Of a DNA stretch of 64,000 nt, positions 6,757 to 24,937 are shown piece after piece. Every line of letters begins with the position of its first letter. The stretch's first letter is position 1. The notes under the pieces were generated by a model. That model ran no database searches. It was not told the origin of the DNA and saw nothing but the letters and a program-made list of their open reading frames with translations. The stretch comes from a virus (lineage: Duplodnaviria; Caudoviricetes): positions 1 through 64,000 of IMG/VR virus record IMGVR_UViG_3300028591_000127, one strand, 5' to 3'. Both the position numbers and the translations under genes were made by a program.

Positions 6757-6758
6757 GT

Positions 6759-7102: not shown

Positions 7103-7345
7103 TCAAGAAATTATGACAGATCCATACATTATATTTTTAAGTTGTCCATCATTTCCCAAAATAAAGTACAGGTATTTGTCTATGGGTTCTTCTGGTATTG
7201 TTTCTGTTACCTCAATGCCCACAACGCTTTTAGAGATTATTCCGAGATTTGATATTTGTTCTATTCCGGTCTCAATATTATTCAGTTTTTCTGCGTCGAT
7301 TGGTGTATTTCCGTCGACCCATTTAGTTTTATTATACTCTATCAT
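7103..7345 (-). CDS. Small phage tail-associated protein (80 aa)
   Basis: YNKTKWVDGNTPIDAEKLNNIETGI resembles a motif common in phage tail/baseplate proteins; ATGA overlap with upstream gene. Confidence 0.6.
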   Translation of the reverse strand: MIEYNKTKWVDGNTPIDAEKLNNIETGIEQISNLGIISKSVVGIEVTETIPEEPIDKYLYFILGNDGQLKNIMYGSVIIS

Positions 7346-7668
7346 TTTTTACCACAGATAACTTTTCCACAAGTACTATTACCACAGATGGCGGGGCAGA
7401 TTTTAGTTACGCTAAGTATTTGAAGATCTTTTAGGTAGAATTCTTTCCCATTAAGTCCCTCCAGTGTTACTACCGTGACTCCCCGTCCTGTTTGTGTTTC
7501 AATTTTTATTTTGACGTCTTTAATAAGGAACACTTCATCGGTTGGCACGCCCCAGGATCCTGTTCCTACAGCTTTAGACGTAATTTTTGCTGTTCCCCCA
7601 ATAAGATTCCCATAGTTCCAGTTACCATAGGGTGAGGTATTAGCTAAAATTTTATTATTCTTCATCAT
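7342..7668 (-). CDS. Hypothetical protein (108 aa) with Cys-rich C-terminus
   Basis: ORF track; overlaps both neighbours in the operon. Confidence 0.6.
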   Translation of the reverse strand: MMKNNKILANTSPYGNWNYGNLIGGTAKITSKAVGTGSWGVPTDEVFLIKDVKIKIETQTGRGVTVVTLEGLNGKEFYLKDLQILSVTKICPAICGNSTCGKVICGKK

Positions 7669-8146
7669 AGAGGTTATCGATCCATTCGTCCAATTTATCT
7701 TTATCGTCCCAGCAATTTTTCAGGCAATCGTCAATAAAGTTCGAGTATTCATTTCTGAACTGGTAATATTCTTCTTGTGTTTCGAACTTATATCTAGTAT
7801 TATCTCCGAGTCTAATTTCCGGCAAGAATTGTTCGTTTTCTTTCACGGCATCATAGTTTCTTTGATAATTGATCTGATTTTCTGTTGATAGCCAGACCGG
7901 GTGTGTTTTCCATGTGAATCCCTCTAGTATATTCTGGTCGCACCTATCATTGAGGTAGTTTTCTAGTCTGGTTTTTATGGTTGTTTTGTCTGGTTTTTGG
8001 CCTTTAAACAGAAACTCAACCCAGGACCACCCTTTATCAGCGTTTTCCAGAACATCATAGGCCAGTACAGTATAGATTTGATTTCCAACCATAAAATGTT
8101 GAATCTTATCTGGTTTCTTTTCTGTGCTATAAATTCTTTCTATCAT
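7655..8146 (-). CDS. Putative tail-fibre assembly/chaperone protein (DUF4376-like); paralog of 16014-16514
   Basis: ILEGFTWKTHPVWLSTENQINY matches ILSGFTWRGKSVWLSAENQRNF; lies directly downstream of the adhesin. Confidence 0.6.
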   Translation of the reverse strand: MIERIYSTEKKPDKIQHFMVGNQIYTVLAYDVLENADKGWSWVEFLFKGQKPDKTTIKTRLENYLNDRCDQNILEGFTWKTHPVWLSTENQINYQRNYDAVKENEQFLPEIRLGDNTRYKFETQEEYYQFRNEYSNFIDDCLKNCWDDKDKLDEWIDNLYDEE

Positions 8147-8214
8147 TTTGTTATGGTTTTAAAGGGGATTAGGGAGAGTTTGTCTATTTCCCTCCCTTTC
8201 CCAGATTAAGTTTA

Positions 8215-11200
8215 CTATAGTTCAGGCCGCCAGTAGAAAGCTGCCACAGGTCTCAACAAGTATTGGTTAGATTTATAAATATATGCCTTGAGTCCGTTAT
8301 TTTCACAAAATACAAAACCATTAGTCCTATAAGCTAGTGTACGGTAACATTCACCAGAAACACCATTATTACCTGTTACATGTGCCCCCCAGCCGACTAC
8401 GGAGGCTGATCCCACCGCTTGAGCCCTCCTTACCAGGATGTGGTAGATAGGCCTAACTGGTTCGGGTAGTGCTTCGAGGGTAGATATCCTCATATTGCCC
8501 ATTTCGTTTTTATTGAAGTAGGTATCATTTCTTGAGGTTCCATTATTGTTGAGCCACCATTGCCTACATATTTCCCCCAGGTCAGGGAGGTACCACTGCC
8601 CCCGCTTGAAGAAGCTTGAGCGATTCGAGCCCGCCCCTGTTGTAGGTTCCCACTGTCTACACTTCATAAATGCTGGATAGAACATAAACTGATAAGCAGC
8701 ATTACCGTTATTAGTTAATTGCGCCGCAGGCCAAGACTGTTGGTATTGCGTAGTATATGTAGTTGGTGTCATATCTTTGAAGTAGTAAGAGGACATATTC
8801 TCTTCCCACAGATCAGTTGTGTCATCATCTGAGGGTCTAATGAAAGGATATTTTTCAGCCCATCTTCCCTGTTCACCTTCACGTCCTGCTGTAGTATCAT
8901 CTTTACTTATCCATTGAACAGCACCAGAATCAGGATTAGTGATTGTGGTTCTAGCTAAGACATATTCAAAGAATTTATAGACTTTATCAGCTACAGTATC
9001 GGTAGCAATTTGTCCTGGATTTCTATATTTTGTCTTAGTGGCGACATCAATAGAGGTTGAGTAAGTCATTGTTCCGTTAGTATTGGAAGCAGCATTTAAC
9101 CAGCCAGCGGTATAAGGATTAGCGTAGGCGACATTATTAGGATTAGGTAGCCAAACTCTATTACCCTCGCCGTCGGTCATTTCCATATTACTAGCTGACA
9201 TAGTCCAGTTAGAACCGCCAATAGTACGTGAGGATCCTGCTAAATTAGAATTAATAACTTCAACGCTACCGCCACCTGCTCTATAGGGTGTAATACCGTT
9301 ATAGATGGCATTATCGAGTGTTGCAGCGGAAGAGCTAATAGTTTCATCAGACAGTCCTAGCCTATACATCGAGTTAACGTAGGTAGCAAAAATAGTATCG
9401 TATCCACTATTATTGCCTGGTCCCCAATAATCAGAGCCGATTGAGTTATAGGCATCAACTCTAACATCATAGATTTCAACACCTTCTCCAGCATTTTGTC
9501 TAGTGGACATAAATACAACACCAGTTAAGATTTTACCTGTACTATACTTATCATCACAGCAACCATCATTCCAAGCAAAGTCCCCTACTTGTGGTGCTCT
9601 CTTAAAGAATCCAATAATGACATCGAGTTTTGTCGTTCTATTCTCGACTGGAGTATTACCAGTAGGATCAGTTCTGACAATGCTGACTCTCAGACAGAAA
9701 CGTCTTTGCTGTTGGTCAGGAGACTCAAGGAAGTTAGGATTATTCAGAACATTAGCAGAATCAAACTCCATTGTTAAGGATTGCTGGTCTGTTATAGTTA
9801 CGAGACCACTAATAGAGGTTGCAGTGTTGGCTCCAGTTACTCCAGACTCAGAATTAATAACTCTCGGTGCATATTCAGAAGAAGAATCCTCAAAATCTTG
9901 GTGAATATAAACACTAGTATCGTCATCCTCCACTGTTAAGAAGCTCCAAGTAATAGCAGGTTTTCCATCAATAATATCGAAGTCATTAAAGTTTTCGGTA
10001 GGTGGAATAATGCTACCTCCTTGATAAATATACTTTGTTACACCACCGACAGTCTTAGTAGTCAGAAGATTACCATAGATAAAGTTAGGAATACTAATTT
10101 CACCTCTAACACCGGGAGACCATCCATTATTACCTCCAGAGTAGATTTGGTGATCAACGTAGAGAGGGTTATTAATATCTGTAATATCTCCATATTTATT
10201 AATCAGTTCAATCTTCTCTGCCCACTTAAGATATCTATAACCTACTGTTGAATTTGCCTCATTATCGTGGAGATAGATTTTGCCACTAAAGGTTGTTCTA
10301 GCTGATAGTGTTGAATCTCCAACTTTAGCGTAGTAGCAGAGAACGTCAGTACTAACTATCTTATTAGTACTACTTCCCCATCTAACATTAATAAGGTTAC
10401 AGTTTTCAAGTGGCGGTACTCCTTCTCTAGTTTTATCTCTATAAATGTTATAAGCAATATTATAGGTACTAAAGACAGCCTCATTCAGGTTTCGTCCGTT
10501 AATAGTTAGGTCTGTTAGGTTTGGATATCCCGAATAGGTTTCAGCTCCAACAGTATAATCGATGGCCTGGAAGGCGAAGCTAGTGATATTAGGTAGATCA
10601 GAGAGACTAAGTGTTGTCAAGGTTCCTGGCAGATATAGTTCAGTCAGAGTATCCGTTCTAGGTAGATTAACTTGGCTTAAGTTAGTTCCTCTTAGGTCTA
10701 GTTTCTGGAGTCTATATTGTTCAGTAAAATTACCTACACCACTAATACTGCTAACTCCACTCAGATCAAGAACTTTTATGAGTTTTGTATTTTCGGTTAT
10801 ATTAATATTGGTAGGTCTAAATACTAAGCCATCACCAGAAGCATCAAACTCAACAAGTCTTTTACCATTGAGAGTAAAGGTGGCATTTGGGTCTGTTATG
10901 AATCTATTGAAGGATCCCAGCTTTCTATAATAGTTAACACCGCAAAGAGCCAGAGTAGTGTCACCGGATACAGTACCAATAACAAATGGTAAGGGATTTT
11001 CTGTTTCACCTACTATCTTAATAGGCATACCTTGTGCATCGACTCTCCAACCTCCAGGTGCAAGTCTTACGTTATCTGTTACCACTGAAGAGCCAAATCC
11101 ACCCGAGGGATAGAGCCATTGATGTGGAACAAGGTTGAGTACTACTTCCAAATTACTGAGACCGCTAGGCATTTGACCAGTTCTAACACTGAGTGATCCT

Positions 11201-14200
11201 GAAGCAGCAGCACCAGAGAATTCTCCATAGGTACAATATGATGAGAGGTAGATAAGTCTTCTCTTCATAAATTCCTTTTCAGCCTGGAGTTGATCACCAA
11301 GAGACTGAGTGATAGGCATAATACCGGGAGGGTCGAAGGTACCCTGTTCAGTGGCAAGTTGAGCTGTTTCGTATCTGATTTTAGCAGTCTCGTTAAAAGC
11401 AATTGCAGGGAAGTATTCCTGAATATTATAGAAGTATTTTTGACAGCAACCACACACAGAGGTTTCAACTCCTCCAGTAGCAAGAGCTGTCATTCCTGCC
11501 AAGATACTAGACATCATACTCTGCAATCTCGAGTTAGCTTTTCTATCGGTTACTTGATTAGCACCAGTTCCAATACCGTAAGCTCTTTCAATGAGATCTT
11601 GGAGAACGTTAAACTGTCCTTCCCAGTGAGTACCAGTGGGATTACCTTGGATATCACGACCCATAATATCTCTCTCTTCAACCCAATATGGTTTACTTTG
11701 CCAACCTACATTATTAGTTCTGATAATAGTATCAAGGTCGTCCTGTGATAGAGTTATCTTACCAGTACCAGGATCAACAACGTAATAGGTATTCTTAGAT
11801 CTATTATCGGTTCCAGCAATCAGCTTAATAAATTCGTGATGGAAGAGAAGGTCATTAAGAACGAAGAAAGATTCAACATTCAATGCCACTCCATACTTAG
11901 CCTGTGAAACGTTACCAGTTTTAAAGTCCTCAATAATGGCACTTATAATCTGATTGTTTGCTGTTTCTACTGAAGAGGATAGTGTGAGATTCCATCTAGT
12001 ATTAACTTTTACTTCTTGCCATTCTCCCCAAACAGGTCTAGTAATATTATAAGTGTTTCCTCCCCAAGTTACAGATGCGGTAGCTGTACCTGTTACGCTA
12101 CGATATGTGGATCTAACCCACTTTCTTTGAGCATAGTTATATCGATATAGATTATACTGTGAACTTGGTGATTCAATATACTCTGAGTCATTTGAGTCAT
12201 TAGTCATCCAATAACAATAGCTGGTATTGATAGGATCGTATTCAGTATTTTGTGAAGGATCCTCTGTCCAAGCTCTCAGATTAGCTATTGTATCTTCCCA
12301 AGGTTTAATAAAGCAGTTATGTTCGTATAACCAGTTCCATGCATTCTTAATGTAACGCTCAGCTGATAAGGTACCAACAGTTTCTTCCGTTTCAAGCTCT
12401 TCCGGATAAGGTAGCTCTTCACCAGACGTATTAACCCAGGTATTACCCGCATCGAAATTAATATTTTTCAGACCATTATAATAGTAACACTCAGCGTCGG
12501 GATTATAAGTAACTTCCTCATTCCAGGGCACTCTCATGTCAGTTAAGGGATTATTATTATCTGCTCCCTCAAACATACCAAAGAGTTTCATAGCCTTATC
12601 ATAACCCCAAGTTGGTTTATCCATCTTACCAGGTCCAAAGGTACAGAGTCCTTGGAATACTGGCTGGGCATCCTCCGGCGTCTGAACAAAGTAGAGGAAA
12701 GGAAGTTCATAAACAGCAACACGGGCCTTAGAATTAGTCTTCATTATCGTATTACCGTCACTACTCGTCAGACAGATACGCCTATATAGATCATTATATA
12801 GGGCGGTAGCACCAGCTTTATGAGACTGCATTGAAGAGGCGTAATTAATCTTACTAACCAATTTCTTAGCTGCAGGGATATCACTGGTCATGGCGTATTT
12901 CTGACCTACTTCCTCACCGTTCAAATTAGTAAATCCTCCAGTTTCACCTTTCCATTGCCACTGATTATTCCACTCGTAATATGTCTTGGCTGTAGTACCC
13001 TGACCCTTCATTGTAAGTTCAGTCAAGGTTCCAGAATGGTCTTTATCTTGAGTATAGGTACCATCAGCATTTTTATTGACAATACTAATCTCGAGATAAC
13101 CTTTTTGGTCCTGTTGTGTTGCTGCAGAGTGATTACTTACATTATAACCATGCCAGAGTAAGCAGTTATATTGTTCTTTAGCAAGTGAATAATTGATATA
13201 ACCATTAGCAGTAATACTATTAGCTACTTTAAAGGCCTGTTTCTGAATTGCTGAAGGTAAGGATGACATATAATCCTGCTCAACATCACGACTACTAAGG
13301 CCTCCATAGCTACCAGTATAAATTCTAATTGAATAAATATCAATATCAGCATCGGGAGCACCAATTCTTATACCACCATGACCACCAGAGCTAATAAACT
13401 CATTTGCAGAACTATTATTAAATTTAAATTCGCGATTAATAACACCATTAATAAAAACTCTACCATAAGGTACTTCACCCGAGTTACCAGCCAGAGATCT
13501 TACATTATGAACAACGTTAAAGGCAATATGTGTTCTAACATCTTCTTGCCAAGCGAAGTTTTGCTGTTTCTCTGAGGTATTGCTAGTAGTCATGAATACA
13601 CCCTCTAGCGGTTTAAGTTGAATACCTTTAGTACAGTTTCCATTAGCATCTTCTTCACAGATTCTGAAAATGGGAGTATCTTCATCTGTTATATTACTAA
13701 CCATGAAATCTACTTCAATAGTTACATCAGAATTACTATCCTCAGCTCCTATATATTGTCCAAAAGGTTCATAGTCAATAGTAACATATCTATTACTTGG
13801 GACTCTCAACACTGTTTGTCCTACGGATCCTGTTACGCTATTAGTATCTTTAATCCAGCCATCAGAAGTCCAGTTAAATCCTTCAAAGTTTGCTGATACT
13901 GGTTGGCCATTAGCAGCATTGATAATTGTAGCTCTATTTTCTGCTGTTTCTGAATTACTTCTAGATTTTGGATTTAAGATAAAGGATGCGTGAGCTGTAG
14001 GGGTAAAGTCTTCTGAGTTCTCTACGACAACAGGTATTCTATTTCCAGTAAAACCTGACAACATATTGGATCCTTCAATATCAGTAGCTCTCAAGTAGGT
14101 CTGTATAGTTCTAAGGACTTTCTCTTCAATCTCAAGAGTATTGTTAAAGGTATATTTCGTAAGAGACTGTGCAGCTGTTTGTTCAAAGGTAAGATACTCA

Positions 14201-15423
14201 GTTGATCCAGTACTATTACCAAAAGCAAATCTCACATATCCCTCATCGTTGCTGGTCGGTCCACAATAAAGGGCATACCTAAAGAAATCGGTAGCTACGT
14301 AATTAGATGCTTGACTGACACAATTTTGAATTAATAATCTAGGAACACCATCATACTGGGACTCATCATTATCATCATAATTTCTCTGAACCATGACCTG
14401 ATTAACAACCCTGGCTGATTCTTTAGAAGGATCACCACTAACAGAAAGCCAAGCAGTAATAGTATGAACGCCATGACTTAATAGGAACTTCTTTTGACTT
14501 TCATTAGAAGGTTCTGTATATGTGTAGATGTATGGTGTCTCTAAGTATGAAGTAGTTCCAAGACCTATTACTGTGATTTCTTTAGTACTTGCAGTGCTTC
14601 CAGGACTGTCCATATCACCAGTAGAAGTTGATATTTGAATATGAAGATCCTTACCAACTGCACCCCCAATATAATAGCGGAAGAGATATGTATTATGGTC
14701 AGTGTCTGATCCGTCCTTCATACCAATAATAGGTCTTTCCCAATTGCCAGCAAACTCAATACTAAGTGTTGTTTTTGTTATACTACTAATCTGAACGGCA
14801 TTAGAGCTTGCTTGCATATCATCATTATTGACATTGACAATAAATCTCATCTGATATCCTACAACATCAGCGTCAACGTATTCAGAAATGTCATAGGTTT
14901 CATAATCATTCTCATCATCAATACTGGCTGAATTTATATTTTTTGACGCCTTTAGAACCCAAGATGAATTACTAGAAGTACGACCATAAATATTAAGGGT
15001 GCCAGTAACAGGGTTATCTACTGGTGCTGCATCAGCCTCCTTAAGTGTTGATGTAAATCTAATACTTGCTGATACCATTCCATCAATACTAACAATAGTA
15101 CTCGGGGTATCAACAAGCTCCAATTTAAGAGTAGTAACGGTAGCACCTCCACCGCCACCACCAGCAGCAGGGAGTACGATGTTTTCTAAGATTAAATTTG
15201 TCTTAGTAGGATCTCCCACCCACTCTTCATAATCCTCTATTGATGCGAAGGCCAGCATGTGATATTGGTCGTCGCTCCCCTTTTCTGGTTGTGAAAAGTA
15301 TCCAATTTTATTATCCTTATGATCTTTTAGGTACCTCTTTATAAACTCTTCTACACTAGTTCCGGCATAGTTTTCCCAAGAGGTTTCAAAATCAGGGATT
15401 AAAGTATTTATAATATCTGCCAT
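8215..15423 (-). CDS. Large putative adhesin/tail-fibre protein (2402 aa) with LamG-like and LRR-like segments and a C-terminal CLec-fold domain; expression locus of the cassette array
   Basis: Paralog of the DGR target (KINYASSMQSHK, GTDNRSKNTYY); C-terminal WYLPDLGE...HVT...KSNQYLLRPVAAF. Confidence 0.85.
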   Translation of the reverse strand: MADIINTLIPDFETSWENYAGTSVEEFIKRYLKDHKDNKIGYFSQPEKGSDDQYHMLAFASIEDYEEWVGDPTKTNLILENIVLPAAGGGGGGATVTTLKLELVDTPSTIVSIDGMVSASIRFTSTLKEADAAPVDNPVTGTLNIYGRTSSNSSWVLKASKNINSASIDDENDYETYDISEYVDADVVGYQMRFIVNVNNDDMQASSNAVQISSITKTTLSIEFAGNWERPIIGMKDGSDTDHNTYLFRYYIGGAVGKDLHIQISTSTGDMDSPGSTASTKEITVIGLGTTSYLETPYIYTYTEPSNESQKKFLLSHGVHTITAWLSVSGDPSKESARVVNQVMVQRNYDDNDESQYDGVPRLLIQNCVSQASNYVATDFFRYALYCGPTSNDEGYVRFAFGNSTGSTEYLTFEQTAAQSLTKYTFNNTLEIEEKVLRTIQTYLRATDIEGSNMLSGFTGNRIPVVVENSEDFTPTAHASFILNPKSRSNSETAENRATIINAANGQPVSANFEGFNWTSDGWIKDTNSVTGSVGQTVLRVPSNRYVTIDYEPFGQYIGAEDSNSDVTIEVDFMVSNITDEDTPIFRICEEDANGNCTKGIQLKPLEGVFMTTSNTSEKQQNFAWQEDVRTHIAFNVVHNVRSLAGNSGEVPYGRVFINGVINREFKFNNSSANEFISSGGHGGIRIGAPDADIDIYSIRIYTGSYGGLSSRDVEQDYMSSLPSAIQKQAFKVANSITANGYINYSLAKEQYNCLLWHGYNVSNHSAATQQDQKGYLEISIVNKNADGTYTQDKDHSGTLTELTMKGQGTTAKTYYEWNNQWQWKGETGGFTNLNGEEVGQKYAMTSDIPAAKKLVSKINYASSMQSHKAGATALYNDLYRRICLTSSDGNTIMKTNSKARVAVYELPFLYFVQTPEDAQPVFQGLCTFGPGKMDKPTWGYDKAMKLFGMFEGADNNNPLTDMRVPWNEEVTYNPDAECYYYNGLKNINFDAGNTWVNTSGEELPYPEELETEETVGTLSAERYIKNAWNWLYEHNCFIKPWEDTIANLRAWTEDPSQNTEYDPINTSYCYWMTNDSNDSEYIESPSSQYNLYRYNYAQRKWVRSTYRSVTGTATASVTWGGNTYNITRPVWGEWQEVKVNTRWNLTLSSSVETANNQIISAIIEDFKTGNVSQAKYGVALNVESFFVLNDLLFHHEFIKLIAGTDNRSKNTYYVVDPGTGKITLSQDDLDTIIRTNNVGWQSKPYWVEERDIMGRDIQGNPTGTHWEGQFNVLQDLIERAYGIGTGANQVTDRKANSRLQSMMSSILAGMTALATGGVETSVCGCCQKYFYNIQEYFPAIAFNETAKIRYETAQLATEQGTFDPPGIMPITQSLGDQLQAEKEFMKRRLIYLSSYCTYGEFSGAAASGSLSVRTGQMPSGLSNLEVVLNLVPHQWLYPSGGFGSSVVTDNVRLAPGGWRVDAQGMPIKIVGETENPLPFVIGTVSGDTTLALCGVNYYRKLGSFNRFITDPNATFTLNGKRLVEFDASGDGLVFRPTNINITENTKLIKVLDLSGVSSISGVGNFTEQYRLQKLDLRGTNLSQVNLPRTDTLTELYLPGTLTTLSLSDLPNITSFAFQAIDYTVGAETYSGYPNLTDLTINGRNLNEAVFSTYNIAYNIYRDKTREGVPPLENCNLINVRWGSSTNKIVSTDVLCYYAKVGDSTLSARTTFSGKIYLHDNEANSTVGYRYLKWAEKIELINKYGDITDINNPLYVDHQIYSGGNNGWSPGVRGEISIPNFIYGNLLTTKTVGGVTKYIYQGGSIIPPTENFNDFDIIDGKPAITWSFLTVEDDDTSVYIHQDFEDSSSEYAPRVINSESGVTGANTATSISGLVTITDQQSLTMEFDSANVLNNPNFLESPDQQQRRFCLRVSIVRTDPTGNTPVENRTTKLDVIIGFFKRAPQVGDFAWNDGCCDDKYSTGKILTGVVFMSTRQNAGEGVEIYDVRVDAYNSIGSDYWGPGNNSGYDTIFATYVNSMYRLGLSDETISSSAATLDNAIYNGITPYRAGGGSVEVINSNLAGSSRTIGGSNWTMSASNMEMTDGEGNRVWLPNPNNVAYANPYTAGWLNAASNTNGTMTYSTSIDVATKTKYRNPGQIATDTVADKVYKFFEYVLARTTITNPDSGAVQWISKDDTTAGREGEQGRWAEKYPFIRPSDDDTTDLWEENMSSYYFKDMTPTTYTTQYQQSWPAAQLTNNGNAAYQFMFYPAFMKCRQWEPTTGAGSNRSSFFKRGQWYLPDLGEICRQWWLNNNGTSRNDTYFNKNEMGNMRISTLEALPEPVRPIYHILVRRAQAVGSASVVGWGAHVTGNNGVSGECYRTLAYRTNGFVFCENNGLKAYIYKSNQYLLRPVAAFYWRPEL
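8259..8383 (-). other. Exchangeable variable region (expression site) within the adhesin gene
   Basis: Bounded by the same two anchors as the array units; identical to cassette 26. Confidence 0.9.
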
Positions 15424-15436
15424 AATTTATTAAAAA

Positions 15437-15631
15437 TCAATTTCCTTTCCATCCTTCTTTTCCAAGCCAAGGTTTAGCACCAACCCAATGACCTGAACCA
15501 AAGCAGGATCTTATGCCTTGCCAAATTAAAACTGCACCTCTATATACGGCGGTAGCAGTGTATTGAACAAACTCTCCTCCAACGATTTTCCACCAGTGTA
15601 TAGAGACAGTTTCTTTATTTTTTATAATCAT
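15437..15631 (-). CDS. Small Trp/Gly-rich protein (64 aa) preceding the adhesin
   Basis: ORF track; ATGA overlap with upstream gene; SCFGSGHWVGAKPW. Confidence 0.65.
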   Translation of the reverse strand: MIIKNKETVSIHWWKIVGGEFVQYTATAVYRGAVLIWQGIRSCFGSGHWVGAKPWLGKEGWKGN

Positions 15632-16002
15632 GACTCCTCTTCGTAGATGTAATAGAGTGTATTTTCGTCTTTTGGAGTAAGAGCTTCATATTCAGCTTCG
15701 GTTAAGTAGACTATTCTAATCTCTGAATCATAAAATATCTTTAGATCGTTAAAGTGATCTGTACCATTACCTACTTTATATGCATCATAAACTCCATTAT
15801 TTTGTGTTGAGACCCTAATAGTAACTCCATCTCCATAGATCTTATTCTGAAGTGTCAAAAAGTCTAGGTTGCCCTTAATAGGTAGAACTGCACTTTGAAC
15901 GAAGTCTTTTATATTATTACCATTATCATCAATAACAGCTTCAACGTGAGTTCTAGGAGCAAAGACATTACCTTCAGAATCCTTTAATTGTCGAATATTC
16001 AT
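15628..16002 (-). CDS. Small tail-fibre-associated protein (124 aa)
   Basis: YKVGNGTDHFNDL and LTEAEYEALTPKDENTLYYI resemble motifs seen in phage fibre proteins. Confidence 0.6.
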   Translation of the reverse strand: MNIRQLKDSEGNVFAPRTHVEAVIDDNGNNIKDFVQSAVLPIKGNLDFLTLQNKIYGDGVTIRVSTQNNGVYDAYKVGNGTDHFNDLKIFYDSEIRIVYLTEAEYEALTPKDENTLYYIYEEES

Positions 16003-16013
16003 TGCTATTTTAT

Positions 16014-16514: not shown

Positions 16515-17926
16515 AATTTTAATTTATATTTCTTTTTTAATTTTACTATCTCATATGGCCCGACAATGTACATTTTCTCCCAGAAGCCCATTCCCATCTT
16601 GTCAATAGCTTTTCGTCGTTTTCGATAAGTTCTTCTTCTCCGACAGAATCCAAGATATGAGTTCATAACGCACTCTACATACCGGCAGTCTGCTGGGGTC
16701 ATATCTCCCTCTTTCATCAACTTATCAATGTCTTGAAATCTTTTTCTCATGTGTCGAATAGTTCTATTACTAAGATATAGTCTTCCGGGTTTAATATACG
16801 TTCCAACAAACAATACTCCGTGAGATACTGGTTGAAAATATCTCTTTTCTTTATGCATTGTCAGCCCTAGTTTATCTTTTAAGAAATTTTCTATTTTAAA
16901 AATAGATTCTTTTAGAAACTTTAAATCATCACTTACCAGAATAAAGTCATCAACAAATTGTGCTACACAATAATTTTTACCACGAAATAGCCAATGTACA
17001 TAGCTGATGAAGTGAGACATGAGAAAGTTAGCAAATAACTGAGTAGTAAGGTTGCCAATAGGAAGTCCTGTTTCCATAGTAAATAGTGATTTACGAGGAT
17101 TTAACTCATTCCACCATTCTGGAGGTGAGTTTATAATACAGTCTTTTTCTGGGTGATGCATTACAACCTCACGAACTAAGTATAGTAAGAGATTCTTATA
17201 TTCACCGTTATACTTCCGCTTTATAAATCGCTCCAGTAGGCACCAGAGAAGATCTTTATTGATGGACATAAAAAATCCCTCTAAGTCCCCTCTAAACACC
17301 CATGCTGGACGGCGATAATTGTTGGAAATACTTCGCATACCTTCTGCTACGTGTGTTACGGCTTTGTCTGTCCCAAACCCTTTGCGACAATTAAAAGACA
17401 CATTACCTTGTGATTCAAATCGTTTTTCAAACAATGGAGTTAGTCGAAGGGCTATCCAATGGTGTACGATTCGGTCTCGGAAAGAAGCTGCAAAAACTTC
17501 TCGCAGTTTTGGGTATTTAACTAGGAAGCAGGTAGATGTTCCAGGCTTATAAGTACCTTCCCACATTTCATTTGCTAAAACTGGTATATCTACGTTCGCT
17601 TTAGTCATATATTCAACAGCTTGTGCAGAGCGCATCTTTCCACGAAGACAGTCATGGTATGCTTCCCATACAGAATTAATAAAAGATTGTGGCACGGGAT
17701 AATCGGTAAACGCTGAAACAGCCCAAACAACGTTCGAGTTGTACTTATTGTTGTTGTTGTTCACGGTACCATTCTGGAAGTTGACGTTCCATGCGTTCGT
17801 AGCATTGTTCTCGGAACACGACCAGAAGTTACTGTTTCTATGCGACTCTGCAACATAGTAGCTGCCACACTTTTCTTGTGAAGCAGCGAGTCGCCCGTTT
17901 AGCGGATTATATGACACTCTAATCAT
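16511..17926 (-). CDS. DGR reverse transcriptase (ORF includes the TR at its 5' end; alternative GTG start near 17695)
   Basis: REVFAASFRDRIVHH, CRKGFGT, GDLEGFFMSI, GLPIGNLTTQLFAN, FVDD; adjacent TR and Avd. Confidence 0.95.
   Translation of the reverse strand: MIRVSYNPLNGRLAASQEKCGSYYVAESHRNSNFWSCSENNATNAWNVNFQNGTVNNNNNKYNSNVVWAVSAFTDYPVPQSFINSVWEAYHDCLRGKMRSAQAVEYMTKANVDIPVLANEMWEGTYKPGTSTCFLVKYPKLREVFAASFRDRIVHHWIALRLTPLFEKRFESQGNVSFNCRKGFGTDKAVTHVAEGMRSISNNYRRPAWVFRGDLEGFFMSINKDLLWCLLERFIKRKYNGEYKNLLLYLVREVVMHHPEKDCIINSPPEWWNELNPRKSLFTMETGLPIGNLTTQLFANFLMSHFISYVHWLFRGKNYCVAQFVDDFILVSDDLKFLKESIFKIENFLKDKLGLTMHKEKRYFQPVSHGVLFVGTYIKPGRLYLSNRTIRHMRKRFQDIDKLMKEGDMTPADCRYVECVMNSYLGFCRRRRTYRKRRKAIDKMGMGFWEKMYIVGPYEIVKLKKKYKLKL
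17706..17836 (-). ncRNA. DGR template repeat (TR)
   Basis: 131 bp aligning without gaps to 18542-18672 with 15 mismatches, 14 at TR adenines (coding strand); AAC-rich. Confidence 0.95.
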
Positions 17927-18360
17927 AACAGACTATAATTACCCTGGCCATTGTTATAATCGCGCAACGCTATTGCTTGTGCAACGATTCCACGTGCCAC
18001 TTTCTTTATTTTATCTTCTACTGGTTTTCCTATTAGTCCTTTACGGAATAATATGTGTATATCGTCTTGGACATCCTCAACGAAGATCCGCACCATGTTG
18101 AGATATTCAACTCTCTGACTGGGGTCATATACAGAGTGGGATAGTCCAATACATTTTTTAGCCTCGCTTACTGTCAAAAGAATACTATCTATGAATTTTG
18201 TTAGTTTACGAGGCACTAAGTCATATAAATTAACAATATTATATTTTAATTCAATCGCATCTCGATAGATAGACATTTGTCGTAAAGTGCGATGATTTCG
18301 CTTTTTTGAATTGCTAGCCTCTACAATTTCTTGAGGAATTATTACGCCTTTCTGTTCCAT
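17923..18360 (-). CDS. avd: DGR accessory variability determinant (Avd-like four-helix protein)
   Basis: 145-aa basic, helical-looking protein located between target gene and TR/RT. Confidence 0.75.
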   Translation of the reverse strand: MEQKGVIIPQEIVEASNSKKRNHRTLRQMSIYRDAIELKYNIVNLYDLVPRKLTKFIDSILLTVSEAKKCIGLSHSVYDPSQRVEYLNMVRIFVEDVQDDIHILFRKGLIGKPVEDKIKKVARGIVAQAIALRDYNNGQGNYSLL

Positions 18361-18482
18361 AGTGCTTCAAGAATTCCATTTTGTTCAGAAATAATTACTT
18401 TATTAGATGGTGTCCCGTAGGATTCACTTCTTATTTTCTTTTTGTTAATATCTACTGACATCAAATTAATAGTTTTTAAAGC

Positions 18483-18509
18483 GGACGACGGCTAACAAAG
18501 CCGCCATCC
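18483..18509 (-). promoter_or_regulatory. Hairpin downstream of the VR (candidate DGR target-recognition stem-loop)
   Basis: GGACGACGGCT-AACAA-AGCCGCCATCC imperfect inverted repeat about 14 nt past the stop codon. Confidence 0.5.
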
Positions 18510-18522
18510 ACAAAGCAAAAAG

Positions 18523-21500
18523 TTACGCACTGAGTGCGTAAGTAAACGCTGAAACAGCCCAAACAACGCTCGAATTGCACTTATTGTCGGGGTAGTTCAC
18601 GGTACCATTCTGGAAGCCGACGGGCCATGCGTACGCAGCATTGTACTCGGAACACGACCAGAAGTAACTGTTATTCCACATTGGATAATACGTGGTATTT
18701 ACTCCAGCCTCATTAAGACGATTTAGAATATTAGCCATAAGCGGATAGTTAGCGTCAGCCAGTGATTGGTCTTCATTGGCATAGGCTTTATTTGGAGTGC
18801 TATTATTTACTTTATTGCGCGAAGCATGATAAAATTGATATATCTTATATAGCATACCACAAGCAGGCAATAGCCAGTGTCCACGTCCATATTGCACATT
18901 AAGGGTTTCACCATCCTTTGTTTCTGGGACATATAGTTGACAAGCGTATCCAGCTGGATAAAATAGCATATAAAATCTCTGAGGATTTGTTGCGCCAAAT
19001 GCATTCTCAAGATAGTTCAGTGCTAACATCATATCTCCAAGTTCTGTAGTACTTCTTGGGAGCTCTAACTGTACTGCCTTCTGTTTTGCCCATTCCATAA
19101 GTTGTTTTTGGGCGACAGAAAGTGTTGACCATTTTGTAGAGTCAAAAGCCCCGGCCTCAGTAACGGCAGTCTTACACAAGTAGATGATGCCTTCATAGGT
19201 GACTGTTTGTCCACGATCATAAGTTTGTTCTGTACTAAACTCTGGAGCAGTTAAATCAACGGTATTCCACAGATTTGCAATCCAGCCTTTAATGATAGCT
19301 TTTGATCTATCTGACATTGCGATTGTCTTTGTTTGAGAGTCATAATCTCCCGTACCACTATTACCAAGAGCAAAACTATTTAAGGTAACACCACTTTGAC
19401 TGGCAATCGCTGAACAGGTTGTAGCGTCTATTGTATTACTATCAGTTCCTTGTTGAATACCCCACGGTAATGCGGAGGTATTAAGTGCTGAGTTAGTACT
19501 AGTAACTACTGTTGCTCTTTTCGCAACCACATCGATGCTTAATGAATTTGTACCATTAGTAACTCTCAAGGCATATCCAACTATAGATTTGTCGTAGTGG
19601 AAGTCATCATCAAAAGAACCATCAGCATAGGCAAAGTCGCCGCGTTTGGGTAATCTATCAAATGCTCCTACTTTCCAATAAGCACTAACTGTGTCACCGT
19701 TGGCAAGTTGTGCAGTCACCTTTAGTTTATAACGAGTTTCATCTCCAGAAGTATTTAAGCTTACTATGTTTGCTGTTCCTTCAACGGAATCAGTTATCTG
19801 AATAAACGCTGCTGCATCAGGATCCTCAACTTCTTGTTGATTCTCGTCTAGTTTAACAAATTGCCAGTTTAATGCGGGCTTTTCATTAATAAAAACAATA
19901 TTATTACCAGTATCTGCAGTAATGCCAAATTGTGTAGTACCTGTCTGCTTGAAGTATTTTTGTCCAGTGATATACAGATGTTGAACAGCAACTTTCGTAT
20001 AATTAACGTACAAAGTACTAGACGGATCTTGAATATTTCCGTACTTTCTGTAGAGCATTAGTACCTCATCTAAAGATAACTGTGCTGCTACTAGCATATT
20101 AATGCTTCCGGTTAATGTACATGACGGTAGATTTGCTAACCACATTAAAAGCTCCTTCGATACTGATTGCCAAGTGACATTAGTTAAGGTTAGCTCTGTT
20201 AATGGTGCATTTCCACTATAACATTGTTCTACAATATTTCTACCAATTGCTCCAATACTATTCAAAACAACGGCACTAAGGCTACTTACGCCCTCTAGAG
20301 TGAGAGTTTGTAAAGTATTTATGTAGGATAGCTCTAATCTTGTCATTGTTGAGCCGAGTCGAGCTGTTACTAGGGGTACACCATTAGCAAACTGTACTAA
20401 GTTAAATGAGCTTTCTCGTAAGTCAAGATTAGTAAGTCTTGTACATTTTGTTAGATTTAGAGCTCCTGAAACAGTATTTACTCCCCTCATTATGAACTCA
20501 GTAATATTGATAGCATTGCTTATCTCTACACCGGTAGCAAGGAATTGGTTTGTATCTGTACCATTAGGATTGATTGTAATCCTACGTAATCTCTTTCCTG
20601 AGAATGAGAACGTTCCTTGTTGTGAGGATAGTCCAATATTCATATCACCAAGATCACTATAATAGTCGATACCTCTAATAGCAATCCAAGAGTCTGATGA
20701 GAGAGTAATAGCGGGATAGCTAATAGTTTCTCCAGCAGCTACTCTAACTCTCTTTCCATTTGCACTGGCGGGATAATTACTACTATCAGATCCTACACGC
20801 GGATATAGCCATTTAGCAGGAGTTAATTGAAAATTATAGATTGCACCAGATTTTCCTCTCCATGACATACCATTGGCTGCAGTAGAACTTCCAGCAAATT
20901 CTCCATACTCACACCAAGATGATATATACATAATACGATCTCGTAGCCATTGATACTCACTCCATCTTTGTGACCCACATGATTGAGTGATAGCTTGTGC
21001 AGAGTCATTTTTATAGTCTCCGGAAGCTTGTGCTCTTGCAGCTGCTTCATAAACTAAGCGGGCCTGTTCATTATAGGCAATTCCTGGGAAGTAATCCTGT
21101 GTTGAGAGAAGGTAAGATTCATGAAATCTTAAAACTGTTCCACTAAGTTGTGCCATGGCAGTAAACATATTGTTCATCATGGCAGTCATTTCTGTCTCAA
21201 AGGCTTCCTCTAGGAGATTATAATATCCTGATTCTTCGCCCTGCCAATAGAATTCATCCGCAGCATTTTTATCGTGTTCCTCAACAAAATATGGTTTTCT
21301 TTGTTGGCCTACATTATTAGTCTTTAATGTTGTATCTACATCATCTTGTTCATGACGAATTTTTAATGTTACAGGATCAGTATAATAGTAAGTATTTTTA
21401 GCTCGGTTATCTGTACCTGCATATAACTTAACAAAACAGCTATGATATAAAGCATCATCAATGTGAATATAGTTAGATGCTGTTTCATGAAAATCTCTTT

Positions 21501-24500
21501 GACGAGTACTAATAATTATATTATTAATATTACCCCACTGTCCCTCTGACCACTCTACTGCTGTTATTCCCAGACTAGTACAGAAGTTTTCATACTGCGT
21601 CCGTAAATTTAATTTCTCATAACTTCCTGTCCCCAGCTTTTCTATACCTGCATCTACCCATTGCTGAGTAAGTTCATCATAACGATAGAGATCATATCGA
21701 CTACTTCCTACTATATTAGGATCGTTACTTGTTACCCAATATAGTTTCGTAGTATCTACACTTTCACTGGCTCGTAATTGAGTTAAAGTTCCTGTAAATA
21801 CGTTTAAGCGACTATAGTGTAAGTAAACATAGTTAAAGAAGGCCTTTTGTGCATTAATAGCATTTTCTGAGCTAGGATATTCTTTGTTATTGCTATCTTT
21901 TGAGGTAACACCAAATCCAAAGTCTAATTGTTTTTGTCCATTATACATCCAAGCTTCGTCATCGGGAGAGTACGTGATATCATCATTCCAAGGTATACGG
22001 AATAAGGCTAATGGTCTATCATTGTTTGCGCCTTCAACCATCAGCATATCAGGTGTACTAGTTTTATTAAACCCAAAAGTAGGTTTATCTCCCTTACCTG
22101 CACCAAAGGTCATAAGATATTTGAATACCCAAGGATCATTCTCTGTCTCACGATGGAAGAAAAGGAACGGTTTCTCTAATACAGCAATTCTAGCGTTAGC
22201 ATATAGACTCATTTGTGAGGGTCTAGTTATTACGCCATTAGTTATTAATTGCTTAAAAAGATCGTTATAGATCCATGTTAGCCCAAGTTTATGAGATTGC
22301 ATTGACGAGGCAAAGTTGATTTTTCCAACAAGTTTCTTTGCTAGGGCTTCACCTTCCTTAAGTGCAAATCCACTACCTGCTGCGTGAGTCGTTTCATCAT
22401 CAGAGGTAAATACTGAATTATCTGTTATCTTGTATTGTTGATTCCAGTCGTAGTAAGTCATTGCAGTAGTTCCCTGTCCGCTGGATTCTAATTCAGTTAT
22501 TTTTCCACTATGAGTAGGATCTCCAACTTGTTTAATTTCAATAGAAACTCCAGTTGTTTTTCCTTTATTTTCATCACCATACTTTGGTAGATGTCCTGTA
22601 TGTCCAATAATATTATATTTTCCTAAACACTTACTCCAACTTATATTTCCATTATCATCTAAGATATCATTAGCCTCCTGAAAAGTTATTTTTTCAGAAG
22701 TAGTAGCCAAAGATGATTTATAATTTTGCATTACCTCTGCCGTTGATAGTGCCTGGTTTTCATAGCATCTAATACTGAAGATATCAATGTCAGCTGCCGA
22801 ACTACCAATAATAGTACTAACGTTGGTACTATCTGTAAAGCGGTCAGTGGCGCTATAAGTAATTTCACGCTCTATCTTATCATTAATAAAGATGCGAATT
22901 AGGTTTAAGCTACCCAGATTGTATACCACATTGATACTAAGGCGGGTTCTCATTTCTTCTGCCCAGCTAACGTTCTGGTCATCGAGAGCTCGTTTGCCTT
23001 GGGTCATTATATAGGCCTCTGTTGGTAGCATTTCAAATCCCCAGATCTTTCCATCTACTGCTTCAGTCCCTATTTGAAGTACTGGTACAGTGTCATCTGT
23101 AATAGCATAGGTACGAAAATCAATTTCTAATGTCATGCTATATCCAGCATTATTACCACTAACAAAATACTGGAAAGGATTATAATTTATATCCAGATTT
23201 CGTCCTGCTGGTATATGCAAGGATTTTATTTTTTCAGCATTACTACTTTGATCATCCAGGTTACGTAGAACTTCCATCCAACCGTCAGTAGTAAAATTGA
23301 ATCCAGTAAATGAAGCCTCTACTGTATTACCTGTTATGGAATTTACTATAGTATCTGGATGTTCTTCGCTATTGTTTCTATCTGAGGGATTAATAGCAAA
23401 ATTAGCTCCCCTAGTAGGTTGATTAGTTGCAGAATTACTGAATACCAAAGATAGTGGGCTTACTAATTGGTTTCCTTCACCATCCTCTATATACATATGG
23501 CCAATGAACTCTGTTATATCAACATCATCAATTTCTACTCCGAGTTGGACTGAAAGATTATACATTTGATTGTTTTCTGCAGTAAACGTCCAGGTAGCAT
23601 AAGAATTTTCGCTATTTTCATCCATCAGACGAAAAACTACAGTCATTTGTTCTTCATCACCACAATATACTGCCCAATCAAAGAAATGTACCTCGCTCCA
23701 GTTATCGAATGAGGTATTGAGATTGTTTATGCTGAGAAGTTTTCTACTACCGTCAGCAACAATATATTGGCTTTCTACCCAAGGAGTTGAAACAGACTCA
23801 TTGACATACAACCTTGCTCTTACTGTATGTACTCCACCAGAGAGAAGTGTAGATAGTGTTGAAGGATCCGTAAACTCAAAAGTCATACCAGTTGTTGTAT
23901 TAGTTCCTGTTCCGAGATTACGTGAGCATCCAGGATCACCATTTAGGTATGAATATTGTGCTCTAAAGGACGTTCCAATACCAGTACCAAACTCCATTTG
24001 TAGGGTTTTTGCTACAGCACCGCCAACAAGATAATTGAGAGATAATGTACTTCCTGTTATTGGAAATTCCAACAGACTATTTGGAACTAGGGATAGGTTA
24101 ACAACGCTTAGTGTAAAACTTCGCCAGACAGATGAAGCATATTCTCCAGCAGCTTTCATTCGTACATAATTAGTACCAGATGTCAGGAATGGCTTTAAAC
24201 TAATTTCTGTCCACGATAGTGAGTTGGCAGGAATAACAATTTGATCACGGTTTACCCAAGCCGCTGATGCATTTGTGCGAGTCTGAATAGTTACTACGAG
24301 ATCCTCACTTATATTATCTGTTCCACCAGCAGCATACGTAATAGTAGAGGTTCCTTTGATATTTACTGTTACATTATCATTGGCCTGTATACTAGCGGGT
24401 GTTTCTTGTAATGTTAGCTGTACTGTATAGATATCTCCTCCTTCTGCTGTTGGTAGATTATCGTATGAAATAATGAGCGCAAGACCTTCCTCACCCCACT

Positions 24501-24801
24501 TATCTGTATCGGAGAGTAAAGTCCAGTCACTGTATGCATCAGCATCTTTGAACATTACCATACAGAGTCCTGAGTCATCGCTGTTGGCAACAACTTTAAC
24601 GTACCCAACTTTACTATTGAGAGCTTCATCTTGCGACGCATTCTTTAACTCTATTTCGGAAACTTTTGTTTTGATAGCAGACTCTATTACTTCATGACTT
24701 TTACCCCATTCTTTACCTACATTATCTCCATCCTGGTAAATACCTCCCCAAGCATCCTCAAAATTAGTAAGTGGAGTATTATCTACAATTTTCTTAGTCA
24801 T
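18523..24801 (-). CDS. DGR target: large adhesin/tail-fibre protein (~2092 aa from MTKKIV) with C-terminal CLec-fold domain
   Basis: VR at the 3' end; WLLP motif upstream of it; paralog of 8215-15423. Start moved from 24882 because of the small ORF 24833-24937. Confidence 0.9.
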   Translation of the reverse strand: MTKKIVDNTPLTNFEDAWGGIYQDGDNVGKEWGKSHEVIESAIKTKVSEIELKNASQDEALNSKVGYVKVVANSDDSGLCMVMFKDADAYSDWTLLSDTDKWGEEGLALIISYDNLPTAEGGDIYTVQLTLQETPASIQANDNVTVNIKGTSTITYAAGGTDNISEDLVVTIQTRTNASAAWVNRDQIVIPANSLSWTEISLKPFLTSGTNYVRMKAAGEYASSVWRSFTLSVVNLSLVPNSLLEFPITGSTLSLNYLVGGAVAKTLQMEFGTGIGTSFRAQYSYLNGDPGCSRNLGTGTNTTTGMTFEFTDPSTLSTLLSGGVHTVRARLYVNESVSTPWVESQYIVADGSRKLLSINNLNTSFDNWSEVHFFDWAVYCGDEEQMTVVFRLMDENSENSYATWTFTAENNQMYNLSVQLGVEIDDVDITEFIGHMYIEDGEGNQLVSPLSLVFSNSATNQPTRGANFAINPSDRNNSEEHPDTIVNSITGNTVEASFTGFNFTTDGWMEVLRNLDDQSSNAEKIKSLHIPAGRNLDINYNPFQYFVSGNNAGYSMTLEIDFRTYAITDDTVPVLQIGTEAVDGKIWGFEMLPTEAYIMTQGKRALDDQNVSWAEEMRTRLSINVVYNLGSLNLIRIFINDKIEREITYSATDRFTDSTNVSTIIGSSAADIDIFSIRCYENQALSTAEVMQNYKSSLATTSEKITFQEANDILDDNGNISWSKCLGKYNIIGHTGHLPKYGDENKGKTTGVSIEIKQVGDPTHSGKITELESSGQGTTAMTYYDWNQQYKITDNSVFTSDDETTHAAGSGFALKEGEALAKKLVGKINFASSMQSHKLGLTWIYNDLFKQLITNGVITRPSQMSLYANARIAVLEKPFLFFHRETENDPWVFKYLMTFGAGKGDKPTFGFNKTSTPDMLMVEGANNDRPLALFRIPWNDDITYSPDDEAWMYNGQKQLDFGFGVTSKDSNNKEYPSSENAINAQKAFFNYVYLHYSRLNVFTGTLTQLRASESVDTTKLYWVTSNDPNIVGSSRYDLYRYDELTQQWVDAGIEKLGTGSYEKLNLRTQYENFCTSLGITAVEWSEGQWGNINNIIISTRQRDFHETASNYIHIDDALYHSCFVKLYAGTDNRAKNTYYYTDPVTLKIRHEQDDVDTTLKTNNVGQQRKPYFVEEHDKNAADEFYWQGEESGYYNLLEEAFETEMTAMMNNMFTAMAQLSGTVLRFHESYLLSTQDYFPGIAYNEQARLVYEAAARAQASGDYKNDSAQAITQSCGSQRWSEYQWLRDRIMYISSWCEYGEFAGSSTAANGMSWRGKSGAIYNFQLTPAKWLYPRVGSDSSNYPASANGKRVRVAAGETISYPAITLSSDSWIAIRGIDYYSDLGDMNIGLSSQQGTFSFSGKRLRRITINPNGTDTNQFLATGVEISNAINITEFIMRGVNTVSGALNLTKCTRLTNLDLRESSFNLVQFANGVPLVTARLGSTMTRLELSYINTLQTLTLEGVSSLSAVVLNSIGAIGRNIVEQCYSGNAPLTELTLTNVTWQSVSKELLMWLANLPSCTLTGSINMLVAAQLSLDEVLMLYRKYGNIQDPSSTLYVNYTKVAVQHLYITGQKYFKQTGTTQFGITADTGNNIVFINEKPALNWQFVKLDENQQEVEDPDAAAFIQITDSVEGTANIVSLNTSGDETRYKLKVTAQLANGDTVSAYWKVGAFDRLPKRGDFAYADGSFDDDFHYDKSIVGYALRVTNGTNSLSIDVVAKRATVVTSTNSALNTSALPWGIQQGTDSNTIDATTCSAIASQSGVTLNSFALGNSGTGDYDSQTKTIAMSDRSKAIIKGWIANLWNTVDLTAPEFSTEQTYDRGQTVTYEGIIYLCKTAVTEAGAFDSTKWSTLSVAQKQLMEWAKQKAVQLELPRSTTELGDMMLALNYLENAFGATNPQRFYMLFYPAGYACQLYVPETKDGETLNVQYGRGHWLLPACGMLYKIYQFYHASRNKVNNSTPNKAYANEDQSLADANYPLMANILNRLNEAGVNTTYYPMWNNSYFWSCSEYNAAYAWPVGFQNGTVNYPDNKCNSSVVWAVSAFTYALSA
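18542..18672 (-). repeat. DGR variable repeat (VR)
   Basis: Encodes NSYFWSCSEYNAAYAWPVGFQNGTVNYPDNKCNSSVVWAVSAF; adenine-specific differences from TR. Confidence 0.95.
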
Positions 24802-24832
24802 ATTTGTTATCTTTATATCATTTTTATTATCT

Positions 24833-24937
24833 TTACCACGGCTCGCTGCGGAACCAGCCATCTGAGCGGAACCAAGCAGCAATATATCCCTCGATAGCCA
24901 TAGCCATCATCATTATTCTACGGCGAAAGCTGCTCAT
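24833..24937 (-). CDS. Unlisted 34-aa protein MSSFRRRIMMMAMAIEGYIAAWFRSDGWFRSEPW
   Basis: Translated by hand; ATGA overlap with the stop of 24934-26328; same position and Trp-rich end as 15437-15631. Confidence 0.6.
   Translation of the reverse strand: MSSFRRRIMMMAMAIEGYIAAWFRSDGWFRSEPW

Follow-up and report, generated by a model that had tools for sequence, protein, structure and literature searches.

How do two related adhesins of one phage come to be accompanied by two different diversification devices? This question is raised by the window analysed here, positions 1-64,000 (the first 64 kb) of the 109,071-bp IMG/VR virus record IMGVR_UViG_3300028591_000127, in which two adhesin modules stand in tandem (Table 1). 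In module 2, the adhesin gene (adhesin 2) ends in a variable repeat (VR) and is followed by the remaining parts of a diversity-generating retroelement (DGR), namely an Avd-type accessory protein, a template repeat (TR) and a reverse transcriptase (RT). In module 1, the adhesin gene (adhesin 1) has no such parts beside it, and an array of short cassettes lies downstream. An earlier reading of the DNA letters (hereafter the original prediction) proposed that this array varies the homologous C-terminal loop of adhesin 1, and that the cassette system either replaced, or grew out of, a DGR or borrows the neighbouring RT and Avd in trans. We found that the loop of adhesin 1 is an exact copy of one silent cassette, which is still present in the array, and that the loop occupies the VR position of DGR-targeted relatives. 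Descent from a DGR was supported, and borrowing of the neighbouring RT was disfavoured.

The loop of adhesin 1 and its stored counterparts are bounded by the same two words. The 5' anchor, ACATGTAACA (coding for H-V-T), was found with zero mismatches in 40 plus-strand copies at positions 1018-6647 and in three minus-strand copies at 6888, 7035 and 8374, and every copy is paired with a 3' anchor, AAATCTAACCAATAC (coding for K-S-N-Q-Y). The expressed loop is 100% identical over 125 nucleotides (nt) to a single cassette of the array, and the identity ends at the anchors on both sides. None of the 42 sense-strand adenines of the copied cassette was changed, as against 15 of 44 in the TR/VR pair of the DGR next door. 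The donor is present in the consensus alongside its copy, the consensus being that of a single metagenome, in which a mixed population with reciprocal swaps could be represented. The silent cassettes have neither a promoter nor a start codon, and the words that bound them are common to the expression site, as is typical of silent cassettes. Judging from the pieces of gene flank that they retain, the two cassettes that share the orientation of the gene seem to be left over from a duplication of its 3' end.

The cassettes appear to be constrained both as DNA and as coding sequence. The 5' anchor is invariant in 43 of 43 copies, synonymous sites included, and so are the first six bases of the 3' anchor, AAATCT; the AAC and CAA codons that follow vary, the changes being concentrated at three of their adenines, and four other adenines of the 3' anchor never vary, a pattern too mixed to serve as a mark of DGR ancestry. 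As CAT-GTA-ACA and AAA-TCT showed no synonymous change across the 43 copies, the pattern argues that these DNA words are themselves under selection, and not the peptide alone. Between the anchors the reading frame is kept, 41 of the 42 parsed cassette copies (the expressed one counted) having a length of 3n+1. The only stop codon seen ends the 3' anchor of cassette 2, and no cassette body contains one. Except for six similar pairs, the cassettes are nearly unrelated to one another; similar ones differ by ordinary substitutions, insertions and deletions (indels) and mosaic joins. The final conserved strand, LLRPVAAF, near-invariant in the adhesin family, is missing from the silent cassettes. 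If crossing-over took place at the 5' anchor alone, the domain would be defective for want of that strand, so that both anchors must be used.

Does the slot between the anchors correspond to a VR? We collected more than 500 homologues of the adhesin family, of about 2000 amino acids (aa), nearly all of which carry the pattern WSSSE...AW.V.F..G....K....VRAVAAF in a lectin-type domain at their C-terminus. In an alignment of 35 C-terminal domains (adhesin 1 and 34 relatives), which have FYPA...W.LP..GE and LRPVAAF in common, the S-G-E, A-Y, G and K of the cassette together with the tail LRPVAAF fall on the VR-pattern columns of the family. The alignment thereby sets S-x-E, A-[WY], G and K of the cassette on the columns of WSSSE...AW...G...K...VRAVAAF, and most of the 43 cassette peptides carry an acidic residue at the aligned position. 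The upstream half of the C-terminal domain of adhesin 1 resembles the domain of adhesin 2 (pairwise E 2e-6), and the family profile matches PDB 8q4e over the VR part (E 1.6e-5). The slot is thus homologous, by its column-for-column alignment, to the VR of DGR-type relatives, and the homology of the C-terminal loop claimed in the original prediction was borne out.

The ancestry of module 1 can be approached through its relatives. The adhesin family is, to judge from gene order, overwhelmingly DGR-targeted, with adhesin-Avd-TR-RT as the norm. A same-strand RT lies 470-930 nt after the adhesin stop codon, a gap that leaves room for Avd, in 39 of the 63 loci in which the adhesin is complete and followed by 3 kb or more of sequence. 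Likewise, an RT is present in 37 of 50 related IMG/VR records, and in nine of the 11 among them with a completeness of 90% or more. In a tree built from 45 members of the family, adhesin 1 groups with P0001, P0002/P0003 and P0101/P0105 in a clade with full support. The one member of this clade with DNA examined is the locus of P0105 (L092), on a contig of a metagenome-assembled genome (MAG), and it carries an adhesin, an Avd-like open reading frame (ORF), a TR, an RT and a DUF4376 gene. Its RT is 47% identical to that of the window, and its TR/VR pair of 100 nt differs at seven TR adenines (A-to-N) and one T. In module 1, the gap between adhesin 1 and the DUF4376 gene, where relatives carry Avd-TR-RT, is 68 nt, and the flanking genes are the same as in L092; no RT or Avd is adjacent, the nearest RT being about 8 kb away. 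Given (i) the family norm, (ii) the DGR of L092 in the same clade, (iii) the alignment of the slot with the VR and (iv) the 68-nt gap, the view that a DGR gave way to the cassette system, or gave rise to it, is supported. The simplest history would be that Avd-TR-RT was lost from a DGR-type module 1 and that the library grew from duplicated 3' ends. As predicted, adhesin 1 has no matching TR in the window; besides the cassettes, no TR-like copy of its 3' end was found in the 109 kb, nor did a cognate TR for the HVT...KSNQY loop, by which the original prediction proposed to judge replacement, turn up within the record.

Some relatives end in unusual loops. Six loci (L038, L052, L056, L070, L088 and L089) have lectin-type C-termini with odd, non-DGR-looking loops, with no RT within 3 kb and no array; from their sequences, these appear to be loops fixed after loss of a DGR. 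Among the relatives of adhesin 1, the 2063-aa proteins P0003 and P0121 are identical except for Y2040S and T2044S, two changes in the C-terminal loop that fit adenine mutagenesis acting on an atypical VR. We accordingly set aside P0002/P0003 as cassette-type relatives, the Y/S and T/S loop changes among members of the P0003 cluster fitting a DGR.

We consider the following scheme reasonably probable, with real room for doubt: a DGR-derived slot, donor-preserving and DNA-templated copying, and an exploring DGR paired with a stored repertoire. The ancestral receptor-binding module, of gut or rumen Bacteroidales-type phages, would have comprised a small Trp-rich protein, a giant adhesin with its binding loop in a lectin-type C-terminal domain, and a DUF4376 protein. 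Module 2 would have kept the usual diversifier, in which RT-Avd copies the TR with adenine errors and overwrites the VR. Module 1 would have lost Avd-TR-RT, and its VR-equivalent loop would have become a slot between ACATGTAACA and AAATCT(AACCAATAC). Downstream, 42 alternative loops without promoter or start codon would be stored between the same words, mostly inverted with respect to the gene. A stored cassette would be copied as a whole into the slot, the donor staying where it is. This copying would resemble gene conversion and be DNA-templated, with the anchors guiding either template switching or break repair.

Several points weigh against this scheme. Two AlphaFold2 models of the C-terminal domain reached mean pLDDT values of only 54 and 56, with the cassette region below 50. 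We failed to find serine or tyrosine recombinases (PF00239, PF00589), RecA, RecT or HNH proteins in the 109 kb, which is a fragment of the genome, and anchors of 10 nt and 6-15 nt offer little length for homologous recombination of the ordinary kind. The data come from one genome and one consensus assembly, in which no second variant at the expression site was seen. The consensus of a mixed population could mimic donor retention; it could also hide scattered adenine changes, which is unlikely because the VR of adhesin 2 in the same assembly shows fixed adenine changes. A k-mer screen of 134 related loci (80 viral ones and 54 from genomes) detected no array, and the function of the array therefore has no comparative support; a weak k-mer match in L128 was not an array of the adhesin-1 kind. 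The exact anchor pattern had no match in IMG/VR or the JGI metagenomes, IMG/VR held no close relative of the adhesin-1 C-terminus, and no shorter protein fragments with other loops were found.

Could the loops be exchanged by inversion instead? An invertase or Rci-like recombinase acting on the two anchors could swap loops by two successive inversions, as in shufflons or Min-type systems. The library is inverted with respect to the gene while two cassettes share its orientation, the anchors are invariant DNA words, one with the palindrome ACATGT, and a mixed-population consensus could show one loop in both places. Nevertheless, this explanation would require a recombinase of a kind absent from the 109 kb as well as two different sites, and the donor still sits in the array. 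Moreover, a single inversion would turn round the DUF4376 gene and two further genes, and the adhesin would lose its last conserved strand. We thus regard inversion as unlikely.

The second alternative is a multi-template DGR working in trans, in which the array is transcribed, the neighbouring RT (with Avd) copies a cassette and the resulting cDNA takes the place of the loop. No nucleic-acid enzyme other than this RT was found in the 109 kb, and an RNA route would explain both the retained donor and the indifference to orientation; a promoter-like word, TGnTATAAT-like, also stands just before cassette 1, after a terminator. The unchanged adenines speak against it, as 0 of 42 has P = 2.5e-8 at the per-adenine rate of this DGR (0.34), and Handa et al. 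found adenine mutagenesis (~50%) to be an intrinsic property of the RT-Avd complex, whether or not the template came from a DGR (PMC6182149). The TR and its flanks showed no similarity to the anchors, the array or the expression site, no sequence resembling a TR flank or spacer was found near the cassettes, and the adhesin-1 tail did not match the TR 3' end. Unlike the region after the VR of adhesin 2, the slot flanks of adhesin 1 have no significant hairpin, and a promoter scan gave no excess of promoter-like sites. The codons of the cassettes also lack the NNC bias of a DGR-written sequence: C makes up 6% of their third codon positions as against 40% in the VR, and K, E, Q, M or W account for 12.6% of their residues. 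Together with the ordinary substitutions and indels between similar cassettes, these figures rule out the library as an archive of DGR-written VRs. From the unchanged adenines, the intrinsic mutagenesis of RT-Avd, the lack of TR or hairpin likeness and the non-DGR codons, the library probably does not use the neighbouring RT, and we find the trans model quite unlikely. A variant in which the DGR RT, or another phage enzyme unseen here, carries out faithful programmed retrohoming from any of the 42 templates, as a non-mutagenic multi-template offshoot of the DGR mechanism, seems to us very unlikely.

Finally, the idea that there is no active system, the array being a set of decaying serial 3'-end duplications and the identical copy a single past recombination or an assembly artefact, draws on the single known genome without variants, on relic cassettes that record a duplication history and on the absence of the array from all 134 related loci, but it has little probability in view of the frame kept in 41 of 42 copies without a stop in any cassette body despite near-total divergence and lengths of 37-60 codons, the anchors invariant at synonymous sites, the identity that stops exactly at the anchors and the same protein on a second, 312-kb contig.

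Table 1. Positions in the window of the adhesin modules, the cassette array and neighbouring features
Feature	Position	Strand	Description
Module 1	7655-15631	-	Small ORF, adhesin 1 and DUF4376 protein; without Avd-TR-RT
Adhesin 1	8215-15423	-	2402 aa; expression site of the cassette system
Expressed loop cassette	8259-8383	-	From HVT anchor ACATGTAACA to KSNQY anchor AAATCTAACCAATAC, then tail LLRPVAAFYWRPEL
Donor cassette	4595-4719	+	Identical to the expressed loop; still in the array
Silent cassettes (n = 40)	1018-6758	+	Inverted with respect to the gene; ACATGTAACA, 37-60 codons, AAATCT(AACCAATAC), then a 0-20-nt spacer
Two cassettes in gene orientation	6771-7047	-	Keep pieces of the gene flanks: GGCACATGTAACA at the start, ...YLLRP tail
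GC-rich flank just upstream of expressed cassette	8384-8449	-	66 nt, 62% GC, G6 run; top 0.07% of the record's 66-nt windows
DUF4376 protein, module 1	7655-8146	-	PF14301 E 1.2e-5 (above cut-off); phrog_19239 3e-18
Small Trp-rich protein, module 1	15437-15631	-	64 aa, 6 Trp; conserved adhesin partner
Module 2	18523-24937	-	Small ORF, adhesin 2, Avd-TR-RT and DUF4376 protein
Adhesin 2	18523-24882	-	2119-aa ORF, likely ATG at 24801; DGR target; C-type-lectin-type C-terminus
VR	18538-18675	-	3' end of adhesin 2; 89% identical to TR over 131 nt
Two strong hairpins just after VR	18481-18541	-	DNA fold -18.4 kcal/mol, z = -4.1; 0/200 shuffles equally stable
Avd-type accessory protein (candidate)	17923-18360	-	145 aa, between target gene and TR
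TR	17702-17839	-	Inside 5' extension of RT ORF (ORF residues 30-75)
DGR reverse transcriptase	16511-17926	-	RVT_1 1.3e-13; phrog_1423 2e-62; FVDD and IGNLTTQ motifs intact
DUF4376-like protein, module 2	16014-16514	-	PF14301 E 7e-4 (below cut-off); phrog_19239 3e-30
Small ORF, module 2	24836-24937	-	34 aa, 3 Trp; doubtful counterpart of the 64-aa Trp-rich protein
Small tail protein between modules	15628-16002	-	Phage_tail_C tip motif, PF24243 at 2.2e-9
ORF next to array	381-983	+	200 aa, same orientation as library; clean terminator directly before cassette 1
Two small ORFs between DUF4376 gene and array	7103-7668	-	108 and 80 aa; no family match, no usable Atlas match

Module 2 is a canonical DGR, with an RT, adenine-specific TR/VR mismatches, an Avd, identical 3' ends and a downstream hairpin, as had been predicted from the Avd-TR-RT order and the VR. 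In the scored block, TR and VR differ at 20 positions, 15 of them at TR adenines. The homologous core contains one further mismatch only (C>T), the other four lying at the edges of the block, and the last ~26 nt of the two repeats are identical. The RT is the single one of the 109-kb record. The 145-aa protein had no match among Pfam, NCBIfam or PHROG profiles; its Atlas model resembles the four-helix-bundle cluster of PF05635 (TM 0.79/0.86), and its feature matches include bAvd clusters. On these structural grounds it is a candidate Avd, the accessory protein expected of a DGR. The hairpins after the VR may serve as the target-recognition hairpin, as a terminator or as both.

Every gene of the two modules is on the minus strand. 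Read along this strand, the 34-aa ORF is followed by adhesin 2, the Avd-type protein, the TR, the RT, the DUF4376 protein and the tail-tip protein, and then by the Trp-rich protein, adhesin 1, the DUF4376 protein, two small ORFs and the cassettes. The tandem paralogous modules with adhesins of more than 2000 aa were confirmed at these positions (2402 and 2119 aa), the two proteins being 29% identical over ~2060 residues (E = 0). The five motifs noticed earlier (KIN[YF]ASSMQSHK, EGA[DN]N, GTDNR[SA]KNTYY, WLYP and GDFA) are all present in both adhesins at matching positions, and residues 2048-2110 of adhesin 2 gave a weak Lcl_C match. In the tree of 45 members, adhesin 2 falls in a separate clade with L070, L088 and L089. 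Because of these separate clades, and because the two proteins are less similar to each other than to their nearest relatives (41% identity for adhesin 1, 51% for adhesin 2), we take them, from sequence comparison, to be old paralogues of different subfamilies rather than products of a recent duplication.

The DUF4376-like gene predicted for each module also stood, as both proteins match phrog_19239 and are 31% identical to each other (E 4e-22). Of the small Trp-rich gene claimed for both modules, the module-1 part held and the module-2 part is doubtful: in 41 of 80 related loci, a homologue of the 64-aa protein ends immediately before the adhesin gene. The 34-aa ORF of module 2 gave no BLAST match to that protein and shares with it only a W..RS..G.W...[KE]PW-like pattern, a likeness at the level of a motif. 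The most conserved core of the adhesin family corresponds to residues 800-1400 of adhesin 1 (positions 11224-13026) and contains invariant H, D, N and DD..D residues (SSMQSHK, GTDNRSKNTYY, DDLDT). Neither Pfam nor the PDB sequences gave a match to this region, which may represent an enzymatic or binding domain that has yet to be characterised.

CheckV estimated the 109,071-bp record to be 29% complete. The adhesin-1 protein is also recorded on a 311,995-bp contig, and the 109-kb record is therefore part of a jumbo phage. Relatives of the adhesins occur in genomes and MAGs of Bacteroides, Prevotella, Parabacteroides and other Bacteroidales, with a distant one in Bacteroides phage BS-TP1. As the relatives sit in Bacteroidales genomes and MAGs, the host of the phage is likely a member of the Bacteroidales.

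The surroundings of the array offer further observations. The array is bracketed by terminator-like hairpins of two converging flanking transcription units. At positions 6744-6790, where the inverted array meets the gene-oriented relic cassettes tail to tail, two copies of the 3' anchor form a hairpin with a 12-bp stem (z = -3.8). The TGnTATAAT-like extended -10 word, TGGTATAAT, lies at positions 1004-1012, between the terminator of ORF 381-983 and cassette 1. It could drive plus-strand transcription of the library, with the reservation that Bacteroidales promoters differ from this consensus. ORF 381-983 itself matched no family, had neither relatives in the Atlas nor a homologue in related loci, and its fold was predicted poorly. 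The two small ORFs at 7103-7668 were absent from all related loci, and only a weak fibre N-terminal motif was seen in the 80-aa ORF.

The GC content of the phage genome is 37%. It is tempting to speculate that the GC-rich flank next to the slot may mark the recipient site; the flank has no significant fold (z = -0.2), and a G-quadruplex there was ruled out, as no canonical motif exists at the slot. Another GC-rich stretch (~55% GC) in AT-rich surroundings, at positions 50-240 at the contig start, upstream of ORF 381-983, belongs to no Rfam family and folds no better than its shuffles (z = -1.2); no Rfam family was matched anywhere in the window. Outside the window, a 45-nt (15-codon) tandem repeat with 3-11 copies per block was found at 70300-72300 of the record, within a 1170-aa minus-strand ORF. 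It was ruled out as a cassette array, being an in-frame protein repeat.

Among known systems, module 2 joins the DGRs, such as mtd-avd-TR-brt of Bordetella phage BPP-1 and the C-type-lectin-tip DGRs of gut phages. Module 1 would vary the corresponding loop of what is, by sequence, the same fold, at the VR position of its paralogue, and descends from a DGR-targeted lineage. It differs in lacking a TR, an adjacent RT or Avd and adenine-specific changes, and its variants are 42 pre-made, mutually unrelated loops of varied length rather than point variants of one template. A DGR with two targets is known, in which two diversified lectin-domain proteins of one phage both receive their VRs from one TR; here, the second paralogue is no target of the TR.

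The silent vls array of Borrelia burgdorferi B31 lies in the opposite orientation to vlsE. With vlsE/vls of this bacterium, tprK of Treponema pallidum (PMC10063172) and pilE/pilS of Neisseria, module 1 shares a single expression site with promoterless cassettes nearby, short conserved words that bound the variable segment, and, as far as the metagenome consensus shows, a donor that is retained. It differs from them in residing in a virus and not a bacterium, in varying a receptor-binding lectin loop and not an immune-exposed antigen, and in that the one event seen replaced a whole cassette and not a segment. Unlike those systems, the cassettes of module 1 share almost no internal homology, so that only the anchors can guide the exchange.

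Shufflons and invertible fibres (Rci/sfx of R64; Gin of Mu, Cin of P1 and Min of p15B; Rin of Bifidobacterium prophages, PMC6109161) resemble module 1 in their inverted stored alternatives nearby and short conserved crossover words; they store alternative C-terminal parts of an adhesin or tail fibre, as module 1 does. Module 1 has no recombinase in the 109 kb, a fragment, which weakens its membership; its donor is duplicated in the consensus, so that the loop is present twice, and what is replaced is an internal loop flanked by two unlike words instead of an entire C-terminus at a single site. Module 1 thus lacks the defining features tested both of a DGR and of a shufflon. By analogy, it would be a viral counterpart of the silent-cassette systems of vls, tprK and pilS that acts on a lectin loop of DGR type. 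Bacterial and protozoan pathogens are known to vary their antigens from libraries; full-text searches of the literature gave no description of variation of such a kind in a phage or other virus.

If the cassette system is active, a single phage would have two ways to change host recognition on related adhesins: random rewriting by a DGR, and recall of stored, pre-tested loops. The paired layout provides a built-in control, with two devices and one RT in one virion. The exchangeable binding loops on a lectin scaffold would be a natural example of such a design, possibly useful for work on phage host range. Above all, the comparison with relatives points to a DGR target turning into the expression site of silent cassettes, which would link two classes of diversification device that have been treated as unrelated.

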